The notes under the pieces were generated by a model. That model made no database searches. It was not told where the DNA came from and saw nothing but the letters and a program-made list of their open reading frames with translations. From contig JBAQNM010000005.1 in the NCBI GenBank assembly GCA_049303795.1, positions 222,381 through 286,380 of the forward strand: 64,000 nt of DNA, given 5' to 3'. The stretch comes from Candidatus Moraniibacteriota bacterium (GTDB lineage: Bacteria; Patescibacteriota; Minisyncoccia; Moranbacterales; UBA2206). A program made the translations under genes and the position numbers. This document shows positions 5,304 through 45,767 of this stretch, piece by piece. Position 1 is the stretch's first letter; every line of letters begins with the position of its first letter.

Positions 5304-6041
5304 TTAAATAAAATTTATTCCAATTAAAATTACTGCACTTGAACTTAATAATTTTTTCATATAATCCATTAGGGATTTATTTTTCGCATATTTCATCCGT
5401 TTTGGGCCAATAATTGCCAAGAGTCCTTTCTCACCTTCTTTTGTTTCGTAAGGGGAAACAATCATGGAGCAATTAGAAATACCTTTGATTGGATTTTCTT
5501 TGCCGATAAAAATTTTCGTTTCGCCAATTTTTATTTTTTGTAAAATTGTGTCGATATTCTCATCAATATAATCAAGCGCCTCTGCTACTTTGCAAAACTC
5601 ATCAATTTCTTGAAATTCCGGATTTTCCAATAGCTCACTCATTCCAAAATCATAAAATTCTTTTTCTATTCCCGTTACCGCCAAACTACCACTAAGTGAT
5701 GATAATAATTTTGCTGTTGAGCGGGATAGTCTAATGTTTTGCGCTTTTAATTTCAAAAGTTCTGCTTGCATATTTTTTTGCTCAGAGAGGGTCAACTCCT
5801 GCGCCGGCATAATTTCCGAAACAAAATAACGATAACCTCTGTCAGTCGGGATGCGTCCAGCGCTGGTATGTGGTTGATAGAGATAGCCGTCTTTTTCCAG
5901 TTCAGCCATATCATTTCTGATTGTTGCCGAGCTAAGGTCTTTGATATATTTTTCCGAGATAATCTTCGATCCAACTGGAACAGCTGAGGCGGTATATTCC
6001 TCTATCACTATTGCTAATATTTTTTGCAATCTATCTTCCAT
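5304..6041 (-). CDS. hrcA: heat-inducible transcription repressor HrcA
   Basis: N-terminal winged helix (ILAIVIEEYTASAVPVGSKII) and the HrcA family signature; first gene of the hrcA-grpE-hsp20-dnaK operon. Confidence 0.9.
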   Translation of the reverse strand: MEDRLQKILAIVIEEYTASAVPVGSKIISEKYIKDLSSATIRNDMAELEKDGYLYQPHTSAGRIPTDRGYRYFVSEIMPAQELTLSEQKNMQAELLKLKAQNIRLSRSTAKLLSSLSGSLAVTGIEKEFYDFGMSELLENPEFQEIDEFCKVAEALDYIDENIDTILQKIKIGETKIFIGKENPIKGISNCSMIVSPYETKEGEKGLLAIIGPKRMKYAKNKSLMDYMKKLLSSSAVILIGINFI

Positions 6042-8323: not shown

Positions 8324-9454
8324 TTATTTTATTTTAAAAACTTTAGCAACTATTTTTGCTACTCGCAAATCAAGCGCTTCTGGTATTATCTTACCACTGG
8401 TTGGTTTTTTTATCAAACTGGCAATCGCTTCAGCAACTTTGATTTTGTGATTGTCTGTAATAACTTTCGTATTATTATCAAAAACTCCTCGAAAGATCCC
8501 CGGAAAAGCCAAAACATTATTAAGCTGATTAGGAAAATCACTGCGACCGGTAGCTACAATAAATGCTCCGCCAGCTCGAGCTCTTTCCGGCATAATTTCC
8601 GGAATTGGATTGGCCATAGCAAAAACAATGCTTTTTTTATTCATTTTGGAAATATCTTCCTCCGTCAGAATATTCGGTGCCGATACACCAATAAAAACAT
8701 CTGCTCCGGTCAAGGCGTCTCGCACATTTCCCTGCACATTTTCCGGATTAGTAATTTTGGCGATTTCCATCTTAGAACCATTCAGTCCGCCACTTCTTTC
8801 TTTATAGATAATTCCTATTCTATCAAGCATAACAATATGTTTCGCCCCAGCCTTAATTAAAAGTTTGGCAATTGCCACGCCGGCTGCGCCCGTGCCGGAA
8901 ATAACAATCTTAATTTTAGCTAAATCTTTTTTAGCAACTTTCAGAGCATTAATAAGTCCGGCCAAAACAACAATGGCTGTCCCATGTTGATCATCATGAA
9001 AAACCGGAATATCCAATTCACTCTTCAATCTTTCTTCAATTTCAAAACAGCGTGGTGCTGAAATATCCTCTAAATTTATTCCACCAAAAGTTGGCGCCAA
9101 ATATTTTATCGTCTTGATTAATTCTTCTATATCTTGCGTTGCGAGTACAATTGGAATCGCATCCACTCCAGCTAATTCTTTGAAAAGCAAAGCCTTCCCT
9201 TCCATAACCGGCAGAGCCGCCTCCGGACCAATATTTCCCAAACCTAGAACCGCCGATCCATCAGAAACTACTGCCACTGTATTTTTTCGCATTGTATAAA
9301 CTTTGGAAAGTTTTTTGTCCTTAGCAATTGCTTTGGATAACTCCGCTACTCCCGGCGTATACAAAACCGGCAAAGTTTTCTTTGTAAGTTTTATTTTACT
9401 TATTATCTCAATTTTCCCACCAAGTTTTTTTGAAAGTTGGATTGAATTTTGCAT
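8324..9454 (-). CDS. NAD(P)-dependent malic enzyme (short form)
   Basis: Malic enzyme NAD-binding and catalytic motifs (..YTPGVAE.., GxGxxG ISGTGAAGVAIAK, ..LATQDIEE..). Confidence 0.85.
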   Translation of the reverse strand: MQNSIQLSKKLGGKIEIISKIKLTKKTLPVLYTPGVAELSKAIAKDKKLSKVYTMRKNTVAVVSDGSAVLGLGNIGPEAALPVMEGKALLFKELAGVDAIPIVLATQDIEELIKTIKYLAPTFGGINLEDISAPRCFEIEERLKSELDIPVFHDDQHGTAIVVLAGLINALKVAKKDLAKIKIVISGTGAAGVAIAKLLIKAGAKHIVMLDRIGIIYKERSGGLNGSKMEIAKITNPENVQGNVRDALTGADVFIGVSAPNILTEEDISKMNKKSIVFAMANPIPEIMPERARAGGAFIVATGRSDFPNQLNNVLAFPGIFRGVFDNNTKVITDNHKIKVAEAIASLIKKPTSGKIIPEALDLRVAKIVAKVFKIK

Positions 9455-9462
9455 AAGCTAAA

Positions 9463-10404
9463 TTATTTTAACTTCAACATCTTATACGCCCCATTCGCAG
9501 CCAGTGCGCCTTCGGCCGAAGCTGTGATAATTTGACGGAATTTGTTTGATCCATTTGTAATGTCACCGGCAGCAAAAATTCCAGGAATATTTGTGCTCAT
9601 ATCCGCATTGACTTTTATATAGCCTTGCTCGTCAGTTTCCACACCAATTCTTTGCGCCAACTCAACGCCAGGCTCTGAGCCGATTTCCACAAAGACACCA
9701 TCCACATTAATATGATTTTGATCTTCATAGGCATTGTCCAGAATAATTTTTTCCACTTTTTGTTCGCCTTTGATTTCGATAATATTAGTATTTCTAATTG
9801 GCACGATTTTTGAATTAGCCGCCATTTTATCTAGCCAAATCGGTTCGGCTGAAAAACGTTCACCACGATAAATCAAATAAACCTTTGAGGCAAAATCGGT
9901 TAATTCTAAGGCCACAACCACAGCTGCATTTCCTCCACCAATCACTGAAACAACTTTATTACGAAAAAACATTGCATCACAAGTTGCGCAATAAGAAACA
10001 CCTTTTCCGGTGAACTCTTTTTCTCCGGGAATATTCATTTTGCGATATTGCGTACCCATTGCCATAATCACAGCGCGAGTTTTATAAACATTTTTAGCTG
10101 TTGTGACTTCAAAAATAGCATCCTCTTTTTTTTCAATTGAAACTATTGATTCGTTTTGTGGAGAGACTCCCAAATTTTTGGCATGCTCAGCAAAACGAGA
10201 AAGCAAATCAAATCCGGAAACAGAAATATCACCTGGCCAATTTTCAATCTGATGAATCTCGTTGATTTGTCCACCAATCTGAACACCCAAAAGTAAATGA
10301 TCCAATTTATAACGTGAAGCGTAAATTGAAGCAGCTAAACCCGCTGGTCCCGCACCAATAATAATCAGATCGTAAAGCTCATCCATATTTTTTATTTTAC
10401 GCAT
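9463..10404 (-). CDS. trxB: thioredoxin-disulfide reductase
   Basis: FAD motif IIGAGPAGLAA, redox-active CATC, and NADPH motif GGGNAA. Confidence 0.9.
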   Translation of the reverse strand: MRKIKNMDELYDLIIIGAGPAGLAASIYASRYKLDHLLLGVQIGGQINEIHQIENWPGDISVSGFDLLSRFAEHAKNLGVSPQNESIVSIEKKEDAIFEVTTAKNVYKTRAVIMAMGTQYRKMNIPGEKEFTGKGVSYCATCDAMFFRNKVVSVIGGGNAAVVVALELTDFASKVYLIYRGERFSAEPIWLDKMAANSKIVPIRNTNIIEIKGEQKVEKIILDNAYEDQNHINVDGVFVEIGSEPGVELAQRIGVETDEQGYIKVNADMSTNIPGIFAAGDITNGSNKFRQIITASAEGALAANGAYKMLKLK

Positions 10405-10711
10405 TCTCTAATGCATTTTTTAAAACTTCCTTTGCTTGCATCCCAACGAATTCTTGAACGACCTTTCCACCTTTGAAAATTTTTAAAGCAGGAATAGACA
10501 TAATACCATTTTCTTCGGCTGTCTTAGAATTTTCATCAACATTAATTTTTCCCACTTTGGCTTTGCCTTCAACTTCCTTAGCCAATTCTTCAATAACAGG
10601 TCCCATTGCTTGACAAGGACCACACCATGGAGCCCAAAAATCAACGAGCACTGGTCTTTCACTTTTCAATACCTCTTGATCAAAATTTTGATCAGTAAAA
10701 ATCATTGCCAT
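10397..10711 (-). CDS. trxA: thioredoxin
   Basis: WAPWCGPC active site in a 104-aa protein. Confidence 0.92.
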   Translation of the reverse strand: MAMIFTDQNFDQEVLKSERPVLVDFWAPWCGPCQAMGPVIEELAKEVEGKAKVGKINVDENSKTAEENGIMSIPALKIFKGGKVVQEFVGMQAKEVLKNALENA

Positions 10712-18703: not shown

Positions 18704-18818
18704 TTTTGAAACTTAAATTACTTTTTATGTCCTGGCTCTGCTCACCCCGCCTTCGCCAGCTGGCGAATTGGCGGAGTGAAGAGAGATTGGAAAATTTTCA
18801 ATCTCCACTCAACTCAAA

Positions 18819-20600: not shown

Positions 20601-21761
20601 TTAACGCTCAATGCCCAGTTTTTTAAGGATTTCCGGATCTGGGAAATTGTCGAACTGCATGCCAAATGACAATCCCATCATATCCAGAAGCTCCCCAACT
20701 TCTTTCAAGGATTTACGGCCAAAATTTTTCGTCTCCATCAAGTTCTCTCTGGTTCTTTGAGCCAGCTCACCGACAAGCTTGAAACCTCCTCCTCCGCCAC
20801 CGAGACAGTTTTTTGCCCGGATTGACAGATCAGTTTCTCCGATCAAGGTATACAGCCCCTCTACCGGAAGAACAACCCTTATATCTTCCTTGATGATCGG
20901 TGGGCCGCTGGCTATTATCTGATACAGCCCTTGCAATTTATTTTTTCTTACCAGATATCGCAGTTTCCGGAGGGCTTTATGGAAAATCTGCCTGATCCTT
21001 TCTTCGGTAACCATCAAATCATCCCCTATTGCAGAGTAAGTTTTCTGCTCACAGCCAAGGCCACAACGTCTCCTGACTACCAGGATTTCCCGCTTAGTTA
21101 AATTTTCCAGCACGCTTTCGATAGTGCTAACGGCATTGAGTTTCTCATCCCAGATCGCTCCGATCTTTCGCCTTTGCGAGTTGGCCCAGCTTTTTCGCAG
21201 ATCTTTTTTGAGATCTAGCGCATTTTGCGGGACATCCGACTCATCACTTTTCGTGTAAAGATTGAGATTATCATGCCAAAGCTCAGAAGCCTCATCTGAT
21301 TGGTTTCTGCCAAAAATCATTTCAATCAGATTAACATAAGTCTGATCTTCGGCTCTGGCTTGAGGTCGGCTCAATGTCGAGGCAATATCATCGAGAATCA
21401 AAAACTCTTTTTCGACCTCCTCGATACCTAGATACTCTCCCAGCAATTCCTTGAGCATATCATCGAGATCGCTTGATATTACAAGCTTATGACGCGCAGT
21501 CATCAGACATGCATAGAACTTCAGCGCCGATGCGAAAACCTCCTCTTTAGTTTTCTTTTTAGTTCGCTTTAATCCAAGGCGATCAAGATCCAACCTAAGT
21601 GTTGTCGGATTGAGATTCAACCTCTCGGAAATCCAACGGCTTGCGATGCCGATGGAATGAAGAACTGCGATGATTGGATGCCTTTTTTCCTGGTTATCTT
21701 TAATTTCTCCCATCTTGATATCCCCTTTTCCATGAGTATGATTGAGTGTTATGAAAATCAC
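20601..21761 (-). CDS. chimeric transcription factor: sigma-70 region 3/4-like segment fused to an RNA polymerase alpha-subunit C-terminal domain (alpha-CTD)-like domain
   Basis: LTKREILVVRRRCGLGCEQKTYSAIGDDLMVTEERIRQIFHKALRKLR matches sigma-70 region 4.2. LSIRAKNCL..LVGELAQRTRENLMETKNFGRKSLKEVGELLDMMGLSFGM..NFP closely matches the alpha-CTD helix-hairpin-helix of E. coli ([48 protein letters not shown]..NWP). No sigma region 2 is seen. GC-shifted. Confidence 0.6.
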   Translation of the reverse strand: MIFITLNHTHGKGDIKMGEIKDNQEKRHPIIAVLHSIGIASRWISERLNLNPTTLRLDLDRLGLKRTKKKTKEEVFASALKFYACLMTARHKLVISSDLDDMLKELLGEYLGIEEVEKEFLILDDIASTLSRPQARAEDQTYVNLIEMIFGRNQSDEASELWHDNLNLYTKSDESDVPQNALDLKKDLRKSWANSQRRKIGAIWDEKLNAVSTIESVLENLTKREILVVRRRCGLGCEQKTYSAIGDDLMVTEERIRQIFHKALRKLRYLVRKNKLQGLYQIIASGPPIIKEDIRVVLPVEGLYTLIGETDLSIRAKNCLGGGGGGFKLVGELAQRTRENLMETKNFGRKSLKEVGELLDMMGLSFGMQFDNFPDPEILKKLGIER

Positions 21762-21940: not shown

Positions 21941-23713
21941 ATGACAAATGACAAAAAAAATCTCAACAGTACCGAAATAAAAACTACTAATGCTGACCGA
22001 ACAAAAGCCAAAAAAGATCCAACGGAACAAAGATCGGAAAAATTGGACAAGATTAATCATAGCTTGTCTTCTTTTAACGCTCAAAATAATCAAAATATTG
22101 AAGAAGTTGAAAGTACTAGAAAACGAGAATTTGAAAGCAAGCTAGATCAACTAGGAATTGCAGAAATTCCAGTCAGCGAAGAAACGAAAAAGTTGATTCG
22201 TCAAAATATGGTGAGCGATACGATTGATCATGCGAAAAAAGAAAACGAACGTTTCGATCGACTTAAGATAGACAAAATAATTCTAGAGAATATAGACCAG
22301 CCAGATTCACAATTGATAAAAAGGCTTTTCGCAAAAAATGATGCTGAAATATCTGAAGATGTATTTCATAAAAGTCTAGAAAAATTAAGCAAGACAAATA
22401 TAAAATTAGAACCTCGCGAACGAATAGAAATTTTCCGCGAAGCGCTAGAATATTTTAGTAGGGAGGAAAAAGTGATCTACCCTGTTGGTCATGCTACAGG
22501 CTCTGATTCTCTTAGAATGATCATAAAAGATGGGTCTATTAAAGAAGGTGGCACCGGAGAACACGGAGAAGCTGCGGGACAATCTCGCGGAGGAAAACAG
22601 CAAGGCGTTTCCGTGGCGGAAATGAATCACGAAATGGCCGATTATGTCGAAATTTTTTATGCAAGAATGGCAGCAAATAGAGAAATTACAAAAGAAGCAT
22701 TAGAAATTGACGCAGATATTATTGATGGAAAAAATCCAATAGAAGACTTTATAGAAATTTATGTAGAGTTTACAGACACTGATAAGCTTCTAGGATCCAT
22801 GGCGAATAGAAGTGATAATGATATTGATTCTATAAAACTAAAAATCGCTCAAGAAATTGGAAAAAAACCTCGTGAAATAACTCATGAAGATATTAAAAAA
22901 AGCAAAATACTAGAGGAAATACTTTTTGGCTTCATAAAAAAAGCGGCGGGAAGAAAGCACTACATGACTGCAGAAAGAGCAAGTAGGGATTATGTCGCAT
23001 TTGATTCTATTATTAAAAACTGTGAGAAATGTAAGAATGGTGAATTTCCCGAAATAACCTTTAATGGAAAAATATATAAAGATCCTGATGAAATTATTAA
23101 TCTAAAACATGGAATATACGAACTTGAAGATGATGATCTGCCAGAAAAGAAAATACTGATTGAAATGCAGAACGAATACGCCTATTTTCTTCGACCATAT
23201 TTTGATCAAGAAAGTGGAGAATGGATGGAGCCACGCTATTCCATTTCTGAATTTAGATCTAGGAGTAGTGAAATATTGGGAGAATATGCAAAATGGATAA
23301 AAGAAGGAGAAACTTTCAAAACATTAACGATGCTTCACCCGCTAGAAAGCGACTCCGAAGATGTAAAAAGAAAAAAAATAGCGAGATTAAAGGAATTAGA
23401 TAATCAATTTCCTAGCATATTAGTCATTGAAGCAGATGAATATAAAAAAAATGGCCTAACGCATACGGAAAAAGAAGGAAGTCGTCCAGTCCCCTTTTTT
23501 GAGGTTGAAGAAAGAATTATGTCTGATATTTCTCTTTCAAACATTAAAGAAATAATAATTCCAAGATCAAAAATCGATGAAATAAAAAAGTGGCTGACAG
23601 AATCTGGAATCAAAGAAAACAATATGCCAAGAATGGTCGCATTTGAATACTTTGAAATTAAACGCCTATTAAACCATCAATTAAAAGAGCTTACAAGAAA
23701 AATCCAAGCGTAG
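21941..23713 (+). CDS. hypothetical 590-aa Lys/Glu-rich protein
   Basis: Long ORF with no recognised family; the stop codon overlaps the 3' end of tRNA-Glu on the opposite strand. Confidence 0.45.
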   Translation: MTNDKKNLNSTEIKTTNADRTKAKKDPTEQRSEKLDKINHSLSSFNAQNNQNIEEVESTRKREFESKLDQLGIAEIPVSEETKKLIRQNMVSDTIDHAKKENERFDRLKIDKIILENIDQPDSQLIKRLFAKNDAEISEDVFHKSLEKLSKTNIKLEPRERIEIFREALEYFSREEKVIYPVGHATGSDSLRMIIKDGSIKEGGTGEHGEAAGQSRGGKQQGVSVAEMNHEMADYVEIFYARMAANREITKEALEIDADIIDGKNPIEDFIEIYVEFTDTDKLLGSMANRSDNDIDSIKLKIAQEIGKKPREITHEDIKKSKILEEILFGFIKKAAGRKHYMTAERASRDYVAFDSIIKNCEKCKNGEFPEITFNGKIYKDPDEIINLKHGIYELEDDDLPEKKILIEMQNEYAYFLRPYFDQESGEWMEPRYSISEFRSRSSEILGEYAKWIKEGETFKTLTMLHPLESDSEDVKRKKIARLKELDNQFPSILVIEADEYKKNGLTHTEKEGSRPVPFFEVEERIMSDISLSNIKEIIIPRSKIDEIKKWLTESGIKENNMPRMVAFEYFEIKRLLNHQLKELTRKIQA

Positions 23714-23782
23714 CCTCAAGGGGAATCGGACCCCTGTTTTCAGGATGAGAACCTGATGTCCTAGCCGCTAGACGATGAGGCC
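23711..23782 (-). tRNA. tRNA-Glu (anticodon CTC)
   Basis: Reverse complement reads GGCCTCATCGTCTAGCGGCTAGGACATCAGGTTCTCATCCTGAAAACAGGGGTCCGATTCCCCTTGAGGCTA: 7-bp acceptor stem, D-arm, anticodon loop TTCTCAT and T-arm GGTCCGATTCC. No encoded CCA. Confidence 0.85.
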
Positions 23783-23825
23783 AATAAATTTAGTACTAAG
23801 TAGAGTTTATCTTTAGTTGGACGAT

Positions 23826-23913
23826 AGACCTGCCCGCAATGCTACGCCCGCCAGCAACGCTTCGCGTAGCAATGCGGGCTGGCATAGCGTTGCAGGCGGG
23901 CGATGAGGCCAAT
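23826..23913. repeat. GC-rich nested inverted-repeat (pseudoknot-topology) element followed by a 13-nt direct repeat of the tRNA-Glu 5' end
   Basis: 16-nt stem A (23832-47) with A' (23864-79), and 16-nt stem B (23845-60) with B' (23887-902), each with one mismatch, arranged A-B-A'-B'. cgatgaggccaat occurs at 23773-85 (the tRNA 5' end) and again at 23901-13. Confidence 0.6.
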
Positions 23914-24119
23914 GAAACATATTTTAAAATAAAACCTACAAAATTCAGTTTAGCAACAATCTTTAAAAATATCAAGAGTTTAAAAATTGCATTGGTTAAT
24001 ATATTCTGACTTGCTTCGCCATATTCAATAAATAAAAAACAAGCATTATCTCAACCAAGATAACGCTTGTTTTATTTTTTCAGCCAGATTAAGACCCAGC
24101 TAACTCATCAATCCCTAAT

Positions 24120-33950: not shown

Positions 33951-36863
33951 CTATCTCTTAATCGAAATGCCGACTTCTTCTCCCTCAATTTGAAAAACTT
34001 TTTCCAAATCAAATTGTGCAAGCTCCCCTGCTATGAGCTCAGTCGCTAAAGTTTCCTTGGAAATTAAATCACCGAATTTAGAAAATACTTCTTCCGCCCC
34101 AACATGACCAACCTGAATTCGATTGTCCACTTCGTAGTCCGCTTCTTTTCGCATTTCTTGAATGAAACGAACTATTTCTCTCGCCTGACCTTCGAGTTTT
34201 AGTTCTGGCGTGATATTAGTATCGATCATAACATTCTCAGTCTCATCGGAAAGACTCGCTCCCTTAACATTCAATTCATCATAAAGAATACTACTCCATT
34301 CTGTTTTATTAATCATCTCATCAAAAACCTGTGCATATTTCTCACGATTAAGAAACACTTCTTTAAGTGGCTGGCGAACCTTGAATTTATTCTTCGCTCT
34401 GTCCTGCAATCCCAAGGTTATAATTTCACGAAGATCCTGCATATTCTTATTTAACTTTTCATCAATCAATTTTTCATCCGCGACTGGGAAATCAGCAAGA
34501 TGCACAGATTCCTCTTCTGTTAAATTTTTGAAAATTTCCTCAGCAATAAACGGAGTGAACGAAGCCATCAATTTTGAAAGTGTAATAAGCACATAGTGCA
34601 GTGTGGCGTAGGCTTCATTTTTATCGCCATCATTTTCCGATTTCCAAAATCGCTTTCGACTCCTTCTGATATACCAGTTGGAAAGATTGTCGATAAAATC
34701 CATTATTGGTTTTGTGGCACTCGGCAAATCATAGGCCAACATATTGGTATCCATTTCCTTAATTAACTTATGTAATTTTGAAATAATCCATTTGTCCAAC
34801 AGTGCCCTTCTTGGTACTTCTTTTTTTTCATCAAAAGACCAACCATCAACATTGGCATACATCACAAAAAAACTGTAGCTTTGCCAGAGTGTTCCCAGTT
34901 TTCTTTGAATATCAGAAACGTCCTTATCAATTAACGCAAAATCCTCTCCATTAAGCAAGGGTGAGTTAAGCAACAAATACCTTAGCGCATCAGCGCTATA
35001 TTTTTCAAGAAGAATATTTGGGTCTGTATAGTTTCCCAGAGACTTCGACATCTTTTTACCATCGGCGCCAGCGATTGTTCCTGTCACAATCACATTTTTA
35101 AAAGCTTCTTTTCCAAAAATACCCACAGAAATTGCGTGCAAATAATAGAACCAGGCGCGCACTTGTCCAACATATTCCGAGATGAAATCTCCTGGAAAAT
35201 TTTCTTCAAACTTTTCTTTGTTTTCAAAGGGATAATGGAATTGGGCAAATGGCATTGAACCTGACTCAAACCAACAATCCATCACTTTTTCAATTCTCTT
35301 CATCTTCACGCCCTCCAATTCAAATTCAATTCTGTCCACATAAGGCAAATGATAGTCTGGGAGTTCTTGGCCGGAAAGCTCTTTAAGTTCCGCATAGCTA
35401 CCAATGACTTTTTCTATTACCGTTCCATCTTCTTTTACTCCCCTCCAAACCGGAATTGGTGTCGCCCAAAAACGATCCCGACTGAGATTCCAATCAGGCG
35501 CAGTCTCAATAGTATTCTTAAAACGCTTTTCCTTGAAGTGCTCCGGAAACCAATTGATATTTTTATTTTGCGCAAGCATTTCAGTTCTCTGTTCATCGAT
35601 ATTCATAAACCAACTTGGATGAGCGCGATACATGAGTTTTGTTCCGCAGCGATGGCAATGAGGGTATTCATGTTGAACATAATCAATCTTCATAACTGTC
35701 CCTTCAGAAAAAAGCGTCTTTGCAATTTCCTTATTCACTTCCCACACATTTTGTCCCGCCCATCTTCCACTAATATAATTTCCATTTTCATCTACGGTAT
35801 TTACTACCGGTAGATTTTCTTTTTTAGCGATAGCATAGTCATCCTCTCCAAAGGCTGGCGCGATATGCACAATTCCCGTTCCTTCTTCAGTTGTCACAAA
35901 ATCAGCTCCAATGACTCGATGGGCATTTTCTCCATGACTTTCAAAAAGTGAATCATATTTTAACCCTATCAAATCAACACCTTTTACATCATCATGAACT
36001 ATTTCTATTTCACTATCTTTAAAAACATCTTTAATTTTATCGCTAGCAACAATAAGCAACTCTTTTATTCCGTTAATTCTAATGGCCGTATAATTAATAT
36101 CTTTTCCTACAGCCAAAGCTACATTTGCCGAAAGCGTCCACGGCGTGGTAGTCCAAGCTATCACATAAACAGCATTTTTTGTTTTATATTTTCCTCCTGC
36201 CCATTCTTGGTTAGCTTTTAGATGAAATTTTACAAAAACCGATGGATCAGTGACAACTTTGTAGCTATTATCCATTGCCACTTCCGCTTTGGAAATCGGC
36301 GTGGCACAACGAGTACAATACATTAGGACTTTTTCGCCTTCATAAATCTTGCCTTTCTCGTGTAGAGTTTTGAAAGCCCACCAAACACTTTCCATGTATT
36401 CCTTATCCATGGTTTTGTAGGCATTCTTGAATTCCACCCAACGCCCAATTCTTTCAATTGTATTCTCCCATTCGTTTCCACCTTGAACCATCTCGCTTCT
36501 GCAAGTTTCAATATATTTTTCTAATCCAATTTTTGCAACATCCCTTTTGTCTTTAATGCCTAATTTTTTTTCTACCAAATTTTCAGCTGGCAACCCATGA
36601 CAATCCCAACCCCAACGTCTTTCAACGTGCTTTCCTTTCATTGTCCAATATCTCGGCACAACATCTTTCACAATCGAAGAAAGCAATGTTCCGTAATGTG
36701 GAACTCCGGTGATAAACGGAGGTCCGTCGTAAAAAACATAGGAATCTTTCTTGTCCCGCGAGGAAACGGATTTTTCAAAAGTCTCATCCTCTCTCCAGAA
36801 ATTAATAACCTCTTTTTCCATCTCAGAATATTTTTGCCTTGAGTCAACTTTTTTAAATGCCAT
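33951..36863 (-). CDS. ileS: isoleucine--tRNA ligase
   Basis: Class I motifs (P..HYGT.. HIGH-variant, KMSKSLGN) and the IleRS-specific WTTTPWTL editing-domain signature; 970 aa. Confidence 0.92.
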   Translation of the reverse strand: MAFKKVDSRQKYSEMEKEVINFWREDETFEKSVSSRDKKDSYVFYDGPPFITGVPHYGTLLSSIVKDVVPRYWTMKGKHVERRWGWDCHGLPAENLVEKKLGIKDKRDVAKIGLEKYIETCRSEMVQGGNEWENTIERIGRWVEFKNAYKTMDKEYMESVWWAFKTLHEKGKIYEGEKVLMYCTRCATPISKAEVAMDNSYKVVTDPSVFVKFHLKANQEWAGGKYKTKNAVYVIAWTTTPWTLSANVALAVGKDINYTAIRINGIKELLIVASDKIKDVFKDSEIEIVHDDVKGVDLIGLKYDSLFESHGENAHRVIGADFVTTEEGTGIVHIAPAFGEDDYAIAKKENLPVVNTVDENGNYISGRWAGQNVWEVNKEIAKTLFSEGTVMKIDYVQHEYPHCHRCGTKLMYRAHPSWFMNIDEQRTEMLAQNKNINWFPEHFKEKRFKNTIETAPDWNLSRDRFWATPIPVWRGVKEDGTVIEKVIGSYAELKELSGQELPDYHLPYVDRIEFELEGVKMKRIEKVMDCWFESGSMPFAQFHYPFENKEKFEENFPGDFISEYVGQVRAWFYYLHAISVGIFGKEAFKNVIVTGTIAGADGKKMSKSLGNYTDPNILLEKYSADALRYLLLNSPLLNGEDFALIDKDVSDIQRKLGTLWQSYSFFVMYANVDGWSFDEKKEVPRRALLDKWIISKLHKLIKEMDTNMLAYDLPSATKPIMDFIDNLSNWYIRRSRKRFWKSENDGDKNEAYATLHYVLITLSKLMASFTPFIAEEIFKNLTEEESVHLADFPVADEKLIDEKLNKNMQDLREIITLGLQDRAKNKFKVRQPLKEVFLNREKYAQVFDEMINKTEWSSILYDELNVKGASLSDETENVMIDTNITPELKLEGQAREIVRFIQEMRKEADYEVDNRIQVGHVGAEEVFSKFGDLISKETLATELIAGELAQFDLEKVFQIEGEEVGISIKR

Positions 36864-41700: not shown

Positions 41701-41882
41701 TCCAAACTCTGCTATACTTAGAATAATTCTAGGACTTATGCGTTTGGCGAGAAATTATTCGCTGTTAAGCCTTCCCAAGCAAGCCTAACTTTCAGTAAAC
41801 CCGGGATAAGCTAACTTAATTTCACAAATGTCGCTTTAATAATTTTAAGGCAAATGCATAAGTCCTAAACTACTAACCTATC

Positions 41883-45521: not shown

Positions 45522-45559
45522 TAATCGCCCGTAAATTATCAATATTATATATATTCCTG

Positions 45560-45632
45560 TGGACCCTATCGGGCTCGAACCGATCACCCCCTGCTTGCAA
45601 AGCAGGTGCTCTACCAAATGAGCTAAGGGCCC
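45560..45632 (-). tRNA. tRNA-Ala (anticodon TGC)
   Basis: Reverse complement reads GGGCCCTTAGCTCATTTGGTAGAGCACCTGCTTTGCAAGCAGGGGGTGATCGGTTCGAGCCCGATAGGGTCCA with G3:U70. Confidence 0.85.
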
Positions 45633-45767
45633 TATTTTCTATTTAAACTTCAAATTATAGTAGTCATCAGGCTATCCTATTAAATGCTTGTCCGCCTCGG
45701 GAGGAAGCTAAGGGCCCAAAACAACTAATTGCCATTATAAACAATAAAATTAAACTTGTCTAGCTGG

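Follow-up and report, generated by a model that had tools for sequence, protein, structure and literature searches.

A tRNA-Glu gene-head remnant in a Candidatus Moranbacteria chromosome that probably holds nested copies of a new small mobile palindrome

The window analyzed here is a stretch of 64,000 nucleotides (nt) from the chromosome of a Candidatus Moranbacteria bacterium (Patescibacteria, part of the candidate phyla radiation, or CPR). It has a GC content of 36%, and nearly all of its genes are carried on the minus strand. The subject of this report is the leader of a tRNA-Glu(CTC) gene, in which a direct repeat of the gene's own 5′ end brackets a GC-rich block; the block probably represents two nested copies of a new small mobile palindrome, named E here, within the remnant of a tRNA-Glu gene head. 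The features of the locus and of the other sites discussed are collected in Table 1. The tRNA-Glu gene has a G1-U72 wobble pair and a C at T-loop position 55 (GGUCCGAUUCC), and CCA is not encoded. The C55, in place of the near-universal U, recurs in several related contigs (e.g., L154, L161, and L116; compared loci are designated by L and a number). As stated in the original prediction, which was made from the sequence of the window, the 3′ end of the tRNA gene overlaps the stop codon of a 590-amino-acid (aa) open reading frame (ORF).

TABLE 1 Features of the window, with the tRNA-Glu leader labeled according to the interpretation proposed here
Feature	Position	Strand	Remarks
590-aa ORF	21941-23713	+	Stop codon overlaps the tRNA-Glu 3′ end by 3 to 4 nt
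tRNA-Glu(CTC), functional	23710/11-23782	-	ARAGORN; Rfam RF00005, 58.5 bits
Downstream repeat copy, ATTGGCCTCATCGTCTA	23769-23785	-	tRNA-Glu -3 to +14
AT-rich spacer, proximal leader of the functional tRNA-Glu	23786-23815	-	Ends in AAATTTATT, like related tRNA-Glu leaders; TAAACT -10-like box
Decayed continuation of the remnant, TCTATCGTCCAAC	23816-23828	-	Aligns with tRNA-Glu 11 to 23, TCTAGCGGCTAGG
Outer E, 3′ half, CGTAGCATTGCGGGCAGG	23829-23846	-	
Inner E, 36 nt, CCCGCCAGCAACGCTTCGCGTAGCAATGCGGGCTGG	23847-23882	+	Pattern match; inverted, in the center of the 4-nt loop of the outer copy (TG/CG)
Outer E, 5′ half, CCCGCCTGCAACGCTATG	23883-23900	-	
Upstream repeat copy, intact head of the remnant, ATTGGCCTCATCG	23901-23913	-	-3 to +10
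Promoter-like TTGATA-17-TAAACT with TG	23947-23975	-	Upstream of the remnant, not beside the functional tRNA-Glu
Terminator-like hairpin and T-run of the upstream 1097-aa gene	24036-24073	-	Intrinsic terminator scan
IleRS-like gene with empty site	33951-36863 (spot, 34323-34697)		Orthologues in L004-L083
tRNA-Ala(TGC)	45559-45632	-	
Small GC palindrome, TCCTCCCGAGGCGGA	45691-45705	-	Immediately follows the head of the tRNA-Ala remnant
Exact copy of the first 12 nt of tRNA-Ala(TGC)	45706-45717	-	85 nt upstream of the gene; 12-mer 100% identical

The repeated 13-mer, CGATGAGGCCAAT, spans positions -3 to +10 of tRNA-Glu. Its two occurrences are confirmed where they had been placed, one at 23773 to 23785, covering the first 10 nt of the gene, and one upstream of the block; there is no other in the whole window, even with one mismatch allowed. 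The chance expectation is 0.06, and none of 100 shuffled sequences yielded two matches. The 115 bp between the repeats had been described as GC-rich, which holds for their average (53% GC versus 27 to 32% in the flanks) but not throughout: the 72 bases from 23829 to 23900 have 68% GC, whereas the 43 nt from 23786 to 23828 have only 28%. Two inverted repeats of 16 nt each are interleaved in the order A-B-A′-B′ (23832 to 23847 with 23864 to 23879, and 23845 to 23860 with 23887 to 23902). Their coordinates and order agree with those predicted, but the repeats are imperfect, each being complementary at 15 of 16 positions with a central A-A mismatch.

By comparison with other loci, the 72-base block evidently consists of two copies of a 36-nt GC-rich quasi-palindrome, E, the end motifs of which (CCCGCCTGC...GCGGGCAGG) recur elsewhere. 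The first 24 nt of tRNA-Glu served as the query in a scan of metagenome contigs, and pattern searches in the retrieved loci then revealed the element. Solo copies of 36 to 38 nt are present in the Moranbacteria-like genomes L017 (two copies), L029, and L047; the inner copy of the window matches the one in L047 at 35/36 positions, and the consensus is CCCGCCTGCAACGCTnnGCGnAGCAnTGCGGGCAGG. No further copy of E was detected in the window. Since the two nested copies have opposite orientations, the same arms of different copies are near-perfect complements, which produces the A-B-A′-B′ pattern; the arms within one E pair only imperfectly, hence the long nested hairpin. The minimum-energy fold is indeed a single nested hairpin, of -53.6 kcal/mol as RNA (z = -4.2) and -24.7 kcal/mol as DNA. 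The pseudoknot topology that had been proposed is thus a by-product of two oppositely nested copies, and the pseudoknot reading is rejected. The same 72-nt arrangement of an outer copy and an inverted inner copy, the latter at the same loop position, occurs in L210, a phage contig with 63% GC. The nested pair of L210 (675 to 765) is flanked by an additional inverted repeat, ACAGGCT...AGCCTGT, which forms a third palindromic layer.

Two other readings of the block itself were discarded. As an intrinsic terminator it does not qualify, because the transcribed strand continues with TCTATCGTCC and the scan for such terminators finds only the hairpin of the 1097-aa gene; as this gene has its own terminator-like hairpin, the GC block is not needed for that role. 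A likeness to helix 5 of the signal recognition particle (SRP) RNA (CCCGCAAYGCTAC) was dropped because Rfam gave no SRP match. At the block, Rfam returned nothing, whether at the gathering threshold or at an E-value of 10, the tRNA being the only match.

E belongs to a family that extends to phages. At least 15 further copies were identified in 11 IMG/VR contigs with 51 to 64% GC. Where the ORFs next to E were scanned (L204, L206, L208, L210, L213, and L214), phage head, portal, or tail genes were found; the genes beside E in the scanned IMG/VR contigs include those for head protease, major head, portal, and tape-measure proteins, which marks the contigs as true phages. The phage copy in L213 is identical at 36/36 positions to a copy in the Moranbacteria-like genome L017. 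In the sequences compared, the paired-arm motif occurred 24 times, versus 0 to 4 times for control motifs of the same composition. Searches of isolate plasmid and phage collections gave no real match to E. Within single genomes, the counts were two copies per 21 kb (L017), three per 9 kb (L205), and one locus per 64 kb (the window).

The sequence of E is conserved beyond what its fold would call for. Its arms, CCCGCCTGCAACGC and GCATTGCGGGCAGG, form an imperfect inverted repeat and do not vary among 17 copies, and the mismatches of the hairpin are conserved in the same 17 copies (C-A at positions 3/34 and 12/25 and T-G at 7/30). Positions 7 and 34 alone vary, and they do so together, with T/A in 14 copies, A/T in two, and T/T in one. 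The conserved mismatches and the covarying pair point to sequence recognition rather than to selection for a simple stem.

Filled and empty sites of E were compared at several loci. The phage contig L205 contains a filled site (CCTCGATTC, E, TCTATCCTCGC) and, approximately 240 nt away, an empty one, in which CCTCGATTC is joined directly to TCTATCCTCGC. The two versions of this ∼30-nt sequence differ by exactly 36 bp, located between GATTC and TCTATC, and there is no target duplication. In the IleRS-like gene of L017, E amounts to exactly 12 extra codons (PARNASHSDAGG) inserted between NLTGEE and SVHL, where the window and about 20 orthologues show a clean gap. This spot is a hot spot for short in-frame inserts, as a dozen other genomes carry different GC-palindrome-like inserts there. 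The TGT gene of L029 (9519 to 10739) likewise has an in-frame insert of about 30 residues (10350 to 10500), which is absent from the TGT gene of the window and is made up of E and at least two other mini-palindromes (CTCCGCTGCGGCGGAG and CCCTTTTGAAAAGGG). These comparisons show that E is a mobile, non-autonomous element whose insertion is clean and duplicates none of the target. The prediction of an insertion footprint at the tRNA gene is therefore supported at the DNA level, and that of a small mobile structured element is borne out by the copies of the GC-rich part at other loci and by the empty-site alleles in L205 and the IleRS-like genes. Given the form of the element and the missing duplication, E is probably moved in trans by a hairpin or single-strand-DNA mechanism of the REP or IS200-IS605 kind. 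Its neighbors in the phage contigs scanned are structural genes and a helix-turn-helix protein only. The sequence TCTATC flanks E on the 3′ side in both the window and L205, which suggests that TCTATC is a preferred target; the functional tRNA-Glu has TCTAGC and so would not offer the site.

The direct repeat had been interpreted as the target-site duplication of the inserted element. That interpretation is largely rejected, both because E inserts cleanly elsewhere and because the repeat continues past E. When E is removed, the upstream sequence (ATTGGCCTCATCG followed by TCTATCGTCCAAC) is identical to the gene (ATTGGCCTCATCG followed by TCTAGCGGCTAGG) at 17/17 positions, from -3 to +14. The part beyond E, compared with tRNA-Glu +11 to +23, is identical at 8/13 positions, of which the first four (TCTA) all match (P of ∼0.003 against random 13-mers of the window). 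As tRNA identity resumes on the far side of E, the 13-mer is the intact part of a tRNA remnant split by E rather than a duplication made by E. The remnant is recognizable to approximately +20, and only its first 17 nt are exact. The alignment thus indicates a leftover tRNA-Glu head (-3 to about +20) that was split by E after nt 10. Relatives provide a comparison for the upstream region: their tRNA-Glu promoter is TTGATA-17-TAnnnT, with +1 located 16 nt later (L154, L161, L152, L187, L202, and L098). The window has this promoter upstream of the remnant and not beside the working gene. In L154, L161, and L152, the tRNA-Glu gene is identical to that of the window at 71 to 72 of 73 positions and has the same promoter but neither the remnant nor E. 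L098 has a complete but disrupted outer tRNA-Glu gene with an E-like hairpin at the same position, 10/11, and its D-loop likewise reads TCTATCG.

The same data bear on a rival explanation, in which the 115 bp are a single element, a GC hairpin with an AT-rich tail, inserted into the 5′ end of the tRNA gene. The 13-mer would then be a target-site duplication or an attL/attR block, and the element would be an integrase-less remnant resembling a cis-mobilizable element (CIME). An exact 13-bp direct repeat that takes in 3 nt of leader, a native promoter upstream of the upstream copy, relatives without the insert, and att-like, short-range partial 5′ or 3′ duplicates with 1 to 6 nt of flank at many tRNA genes of related contigs would all be accounted for. 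However, the resumption of tRNA identity after the GC block places the block inside the repeat, not beside it. Moreover, the 115-bp unit has no terminal inverted repeats, E inserts elsewhere without duplication, and all 24 arm-motif matches represent E alone, never a composite with the 43-nt AT-rich part. No integrase or transposase was found in the ∼44 of 57 window ORFs that were compared with Pfam or PHROGs (8 to 50 kb covered). We therefore consider a single 115-bp element unlikely. A 17-bp version, in which a 39-bp insert came first and E later, is possible and is effectively part of the question of how the remnant originated.

Remnants are not confined to tRNA-Glu. The tRNA-Ala(TGC) gene of the window is preceded by an exact copy of its first 12 nt, with a near-consensus TAGACA-17-TATAAT promoter (45762 to 45734, read by eye) 16 nt upstream of the copy. 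Past the small GC palindrome that follows this copy, weak similarity to tRNA-Ala resumes (CATTTAATAGG versus CATTTGGTAGAG, also read by eye). The tRNA-Ala and tRNA-Ile genes are 28 nt apart, between the core genes murD-like and dnaE, with no rRNA genes nearby. In L222, which shares the murD-tRNA-dnaE synteny, tRNA-Ala is clean, and a TTGACA-17-TATAAT promoter is followed by an exact 5′ remnant of tRNA-Ile that is 27 nt long (5650 to 5890), with a GC-clamped hairpin (GGGCATTTGC-TCAATC-GCAAATACCC) and a decayed continuation after it. Among the 154 tRNA genes in the compared loci, many have 5′ remnants of 17 to 25 nt, including 1 to 5 nt of leader, at 61 to 125 nt upstream, and many others have 3′ remnants of 12 to 40 nt at 20 to 170 nt downstream. 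Near TGT in GTDB relatives, 0/10 tRNA genes had a 5′ or 3′ remnant. Three unrelated contigs (L087, L108, and L155) carry, between tRNA genes and their 3′ remnants, a GC-rich element of ∼110 nt that starts with GGGAATCGAAC(A/G)GGCG and reads like the antisense of a tRNA T-arm.

The presence of a 5′-end copy at both independent tRNA transcription units of the window could be taken to mean that the leader is a functional RNA, in which the copy of the tRNA 5′ strand and the hairpin or pseudoknot would regulate transcription, RNase P/RNase III processing, or the stability of the precursor. The hairpin is very stable, the exact part of the copies is kept in several lineages, and the leaders in L125 and L147 also hold an imperfect complement of the copy. 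Still, the leader is absent from the closest relatives, the syntenic L222 has its remnant at tRNA-Ile rather than tRNA-Ala, and compensatory changes between the arms of E are lacking in the symmetric hairpin register. Rfam, as noted above, offers no match, and, judging from the coordinates, loops of 0 to 6 nt could hardly span two 15-bp stems, so that a pseudoknot is sterically implausible. Because the same 36-nt sequence also lies within protein genes and between phage structural genes, no tRNA-related function is needed to explain it, and a functional leader is highly improbable.

In several contigs, a complete tRNA-Glu gene with complementary GC-rich arms is located inside another tRNA-Glu gene of the same anticodon. 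The outer genes of L167 (minus strand, ∼1825 to 2010) and L120 (minus strand, ∼9200 to 9560) are split between nt 34 and 35 by inserts that are bounded by the termini of E (CCCGCCTGCC...GGCGGGCAGG) and hold the second tRNA-Glu gene; in L120, the nesting is three layers deep. The same design with other arms is present in L116 (minus strand, ∼1620 to 1880), L098, and L142. A search with the arm motif of L116 and L098 allowing two mismatches returned mostly noise. The outer genes form a decay series in which both halves persist in L116, only the 3′ half in L175, and only the last 16 nt in L115. This series appears to document the replacement of a tRNA gene and the subsequent decay of the outer one.

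The nested genes raise the question of whether the window holds a product of the same process. E and its relatives might be the "empty" form of GC-clamped palindromic cassettes, shared by Patescibacteria and phages, that are able to carry a complete tRNA gene. Such a cassette would insert into the anticodon loop of a resident tRNA gene with the same anticodon and replace it, the outer gene would decay, and repetition would yield tRNA-in-tRNA "Russian dolls" (L116, L098, L142, L167, and L120); the Glu and Ala remnants of the window would then be worn-down products of selfish tRNA replacement. We regard this generalization as tentative and rather doubtful. In a bolder variant, the outer halves may still be used after excision of the insert at the RNA level, but splicing is unlikely because the outer tRNA genes decay. 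An archaeal-type intron with a bulge-helix-bulge motif was also rejected, as no 4-bp central helix could be drawn by hand at the junctions of the window and L167.

Applied directly to the window, the nested genes allow the block to be read as a decayed tRNA-carrying cassette with GC-clamped arms, E among them, that homed into the anticodon loop or another position of the resident tRNA-Glu gene, replaced it, and left the remnant and E as its left stump, in place of a separate, later insertion of E. The splitting of the L167 and L120 genes at 34/35 by inserts bounded by E termini and holding a same-anticodon tRNA-Glu gene, the shared design of L116, L098, and L142, the three layers of L120, and the resemblance of the anticodon-loop target TCATCC to the TCTATC beside E in the window and L205 are consistent with this reading. 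It is nevertheless very unlikely: the window has two full copies of E whose arms are adjacent and complete, with the tRNA gene outside them; no 3′ remnant is present downstream of tRNA-Glu; and solo copies at non-tRNA sites indicate that E moves alone.

We therefore return to the explanation by two nested copies of E, a new mobile palindrome of small size, within a remnant of the tRNA-Glu gene head, to which we assign a probability of about 70%. In an older event, a complete copy of tRNA-Glu with its own short leader would have been placed behind the head of the resident gene. For the origin of the remnant, we favor a replacement copy of the tRNA gene that was inserted first, after which the disrupted gene underwent deletion and decay; related contigs document such a course step by step. 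Were a deletion to occur between the inner gene and one of the outer halves, precisely a 5′ or a 3′ remnant would result. It is almost equally likely that the remnant was left by a small att-flanked integration. A tandem duplication of the promoter and tRNA head was rejected, as the two upstream regions are not significantly similar for Glu (p of ∼0.5); for Ala, the similarity is weak (p of ∼0.004, mononucleotide shuffle). The first E would then have entered the dispensable remnant between nt 10 and 11, immediately 5′ of TCTATC, and the second would have inserted, inverted, into the center of the loop of the first. Most likely, transcription starts at the upstream promoter and covers the whole leader, RNase P then cuts the leader off, and the leader itself serves no function.

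Several observations weigh against this explanation. An exact stretch of the first 13 to 17 nt beside a decayed tail also fits a recent event, gene conversion, or selection, and the same pattern of an exact head in other remnants (12 to 27 nt exact) is slightly too regular for simple neutral decay. GC hairpins are located at the end of the exact stretch in the Glu and Ala remnants of the window, in tRNA-Ile of L222, and in tRNA-Ser of L147, so that hairpin insertion and duplication could be mechanistically linked rather than sequential. For this genome, a single E locus was found in the 64 kb of the window and 9 kb of additional sequence. No mobilizing enzyme was found among the window ORFs scanned or the neighbors of E in L207, L208, L209, and L210, and the preference for insertion immediately before TCTATC or TCATCC is drawn from four copies. 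With respect to the replacement origin, no 3′ remnant lies downstream of tRNA-Glu in the window, and the arms of E are adjacent rather than flanking a gene.

In form and behavior, E is closest to REP/REPIN sequences, Rickettsia palindromic elements (RPEs), and mitochondrial GC clusters. REP/REPIN sequences are repetitive extragenic palindromes mobilized by RAYT proteins, which are IS200/IS605-like Y1 transposases. Like E, they are GC-rich imperfect palindromes of ∼35 nt, mostly intergenic, with a conserved sequence and not just a conserved structure, and they form paired inverted copies without target duplication. In contrast to them, the pairs of E are nested in the loop instead of side by side, and E lacks a conserved GTAG at the foot of the hairpin (GTAG is apical only, in some copies, with GCGTAGC versus GCGAAGC). 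Copies of E also lie within genes, in frame, and in the genomes of phages; the density of E is low (one locus per 64 kb), and no RAYT (Y1 transposase) gene was seen among the window ORFs scanned against Pfam. The GC clusters of yeast mitochondria and the double-hairpin elements of fungal mitochondria are short, GC-rich, mobile palindromes in AT-rich organellar genomes. The clusters lie in spacers and in rRNA and tRNA neighborhoods, occasionally in frame, and often have short flanking duplications. E resembles them in form and in its AT-rich hosts but differs in being bacterial, in its consensus, and in the absence of duplications.

RPEs have been described as selfish DNA located in frame in protein-coding genes (PMC10969869). 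E shares with them the behavior of a tolerated, palindromic, non-coding element in frame in housekeeping genes (IleRS and TGT in the case of E), but it is 36 bp long instead of ∼100 to 150 bp, GC-rich in AT-rich hosts, found in another host phylum, and also present in phages. Compared with a miniature inverted-repeat transposable element (MITE), E has terminal inverted repeats but no target-site duplication (L205 and IleRS). In the literature searched (CPR tRNA introns, disrupted or nested tRNA genes, and palindromic elements of Parcubacteria), no description of E, of CPR tRNA remnants, or of nested tRNA genes was found, and on the basis of that literature and of Rfam, the 36-bp E is undescribed.

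The tRNA remnant also has partial counterparts. The sites at which attachment (att) sequences fall within tRNA genes were reportedly divided into sublocation classes by Williams in 2002. As with att-site or CIME fragments, a tRNA end is directly repeated in the window together with several nucleotides of flank, and the two sides hold an intact gene and a fragment, respectively; unlike in those, the 5′ rather than the 3′ end is repeated, the repeats are 128 bp apart, the fragment is interrupted by a palindrome, and no recombinase is present among the neighboring ORFs scanned. tRNA gene fragments are discussed in PMC9897764. Mobile archaeal tRNA introns and split tRNAs (intron transposition in Thermoproteales; Nanoarchaeum) are mentioned in PMC10714607. 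The tRNA genes of related contigs are similarly interrupted, at 10/11, 21/22, and 34/35, by short GC-rich helix-forming inserts, but the hosts are bacterial, no bulge-helix-bulge can be drawn (L167 and the window), and the outer genes decay.

Under the favored explanation, the feature in the window would be debris, a remnant head colonized by a selfish palindrome, with no evident function, and annotation of the block as a structured RNA or an island attachment site should be avoided. E is nearly identical in Moranbacteria chromosomes with 36% GC and in phage genomes with up to 64% GC, and it is a candidate marker of DNA exchange between CPR bacteria and phages. By entering essential genes such as those for IleRS and TGT in frame, it also adds to the variation in protein length within very small genomes. 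The pattern of nested tRNA genes and remnants, if confirmed, would represent a new way of replacing tRNA genes.

The original prediction had further considered the repeat to be an attachment scar of the adjacent islet, which lies 3′ of tRNA-Glu and comprises a 121-aa ORF, a sigma-r4/alpha-CTD fusion protein, and the 590-aa ORF. This suggestion did not hold up. No second match to the 21-nt 3′ end of tRNA-Glu was found in the window with three mismatches allowed, no integrase or recombinase was encountered near the islet among the ∼44/57 ORFs scanned, and homologues of the 590-aa ORF in other genomes lie in unrelated contexts, none adjoining a tRNA gene. The fusion protein (386 aa; 20601 to 21761, minus strand), in the opposite-strand islet beside the tRNA gene, is an unusual combination of sigma-70 region 4 with the C-terminal domain of the RNA polymerase alpha subunit. 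The site is surrounded by genes for TGT, a U32 peptidase, a SipW-type signal peptidase, a camelysin/TasA-like protein, and lamin-tail-domain proteins.

The locus is 100% identical in two separately deposited metagenome-assembled genome (MAG) assemblies, GCA_049305975.1 (L001) and GCA_049296135.1 (L226), which excludes a one-off assembly artifact. Among closer strains, every assembly found was 100% identical and represents the same population. Two independent short-read Logan assemblies of this population, L002 and L003, break within tRNA-Glu at 23767 and 23770, short of the repeat by a few bases. Either tRNA k-mers that also occur in other members of the community or low coverage across the GC hairpin probably account for these breaks. 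The closest TGT relatives are from Candidatus Moranbacteria/Moraniibacteriota MAGs, with at most 79% amino acid identity, and the host bacterium evidently has no close sequenced relative. When the orthologous locus was sought via TGT in GTDB genomes, the DUF11-TGT-U32 synteny was kept, with no tRNA-Glu after it, and thus no direct empty site was obtained.

Two additional stretches of the window were recorded. The sole other intergenic GC peak is at 18731 to 18791, between the camelysin/TasA-like and SipW-like signal peptidase genes, where a 63% GC sequence forms two hairpins; it is probably a terminator or attenuator unrelated to E. Just upstream of dnaE, a 146-nt element (41722 to 41867) has perfect 12-nt inverted termini (TAGGACTTATGC...GCATAAGTCCTA) and gave no Rfam match at the gathering threshold. 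A second copy with 85% identity is present in the same genome, downstream of rmuC/gyrB (L223, 13705 to 13849), and the element could be MITE-like or a structured RNA.

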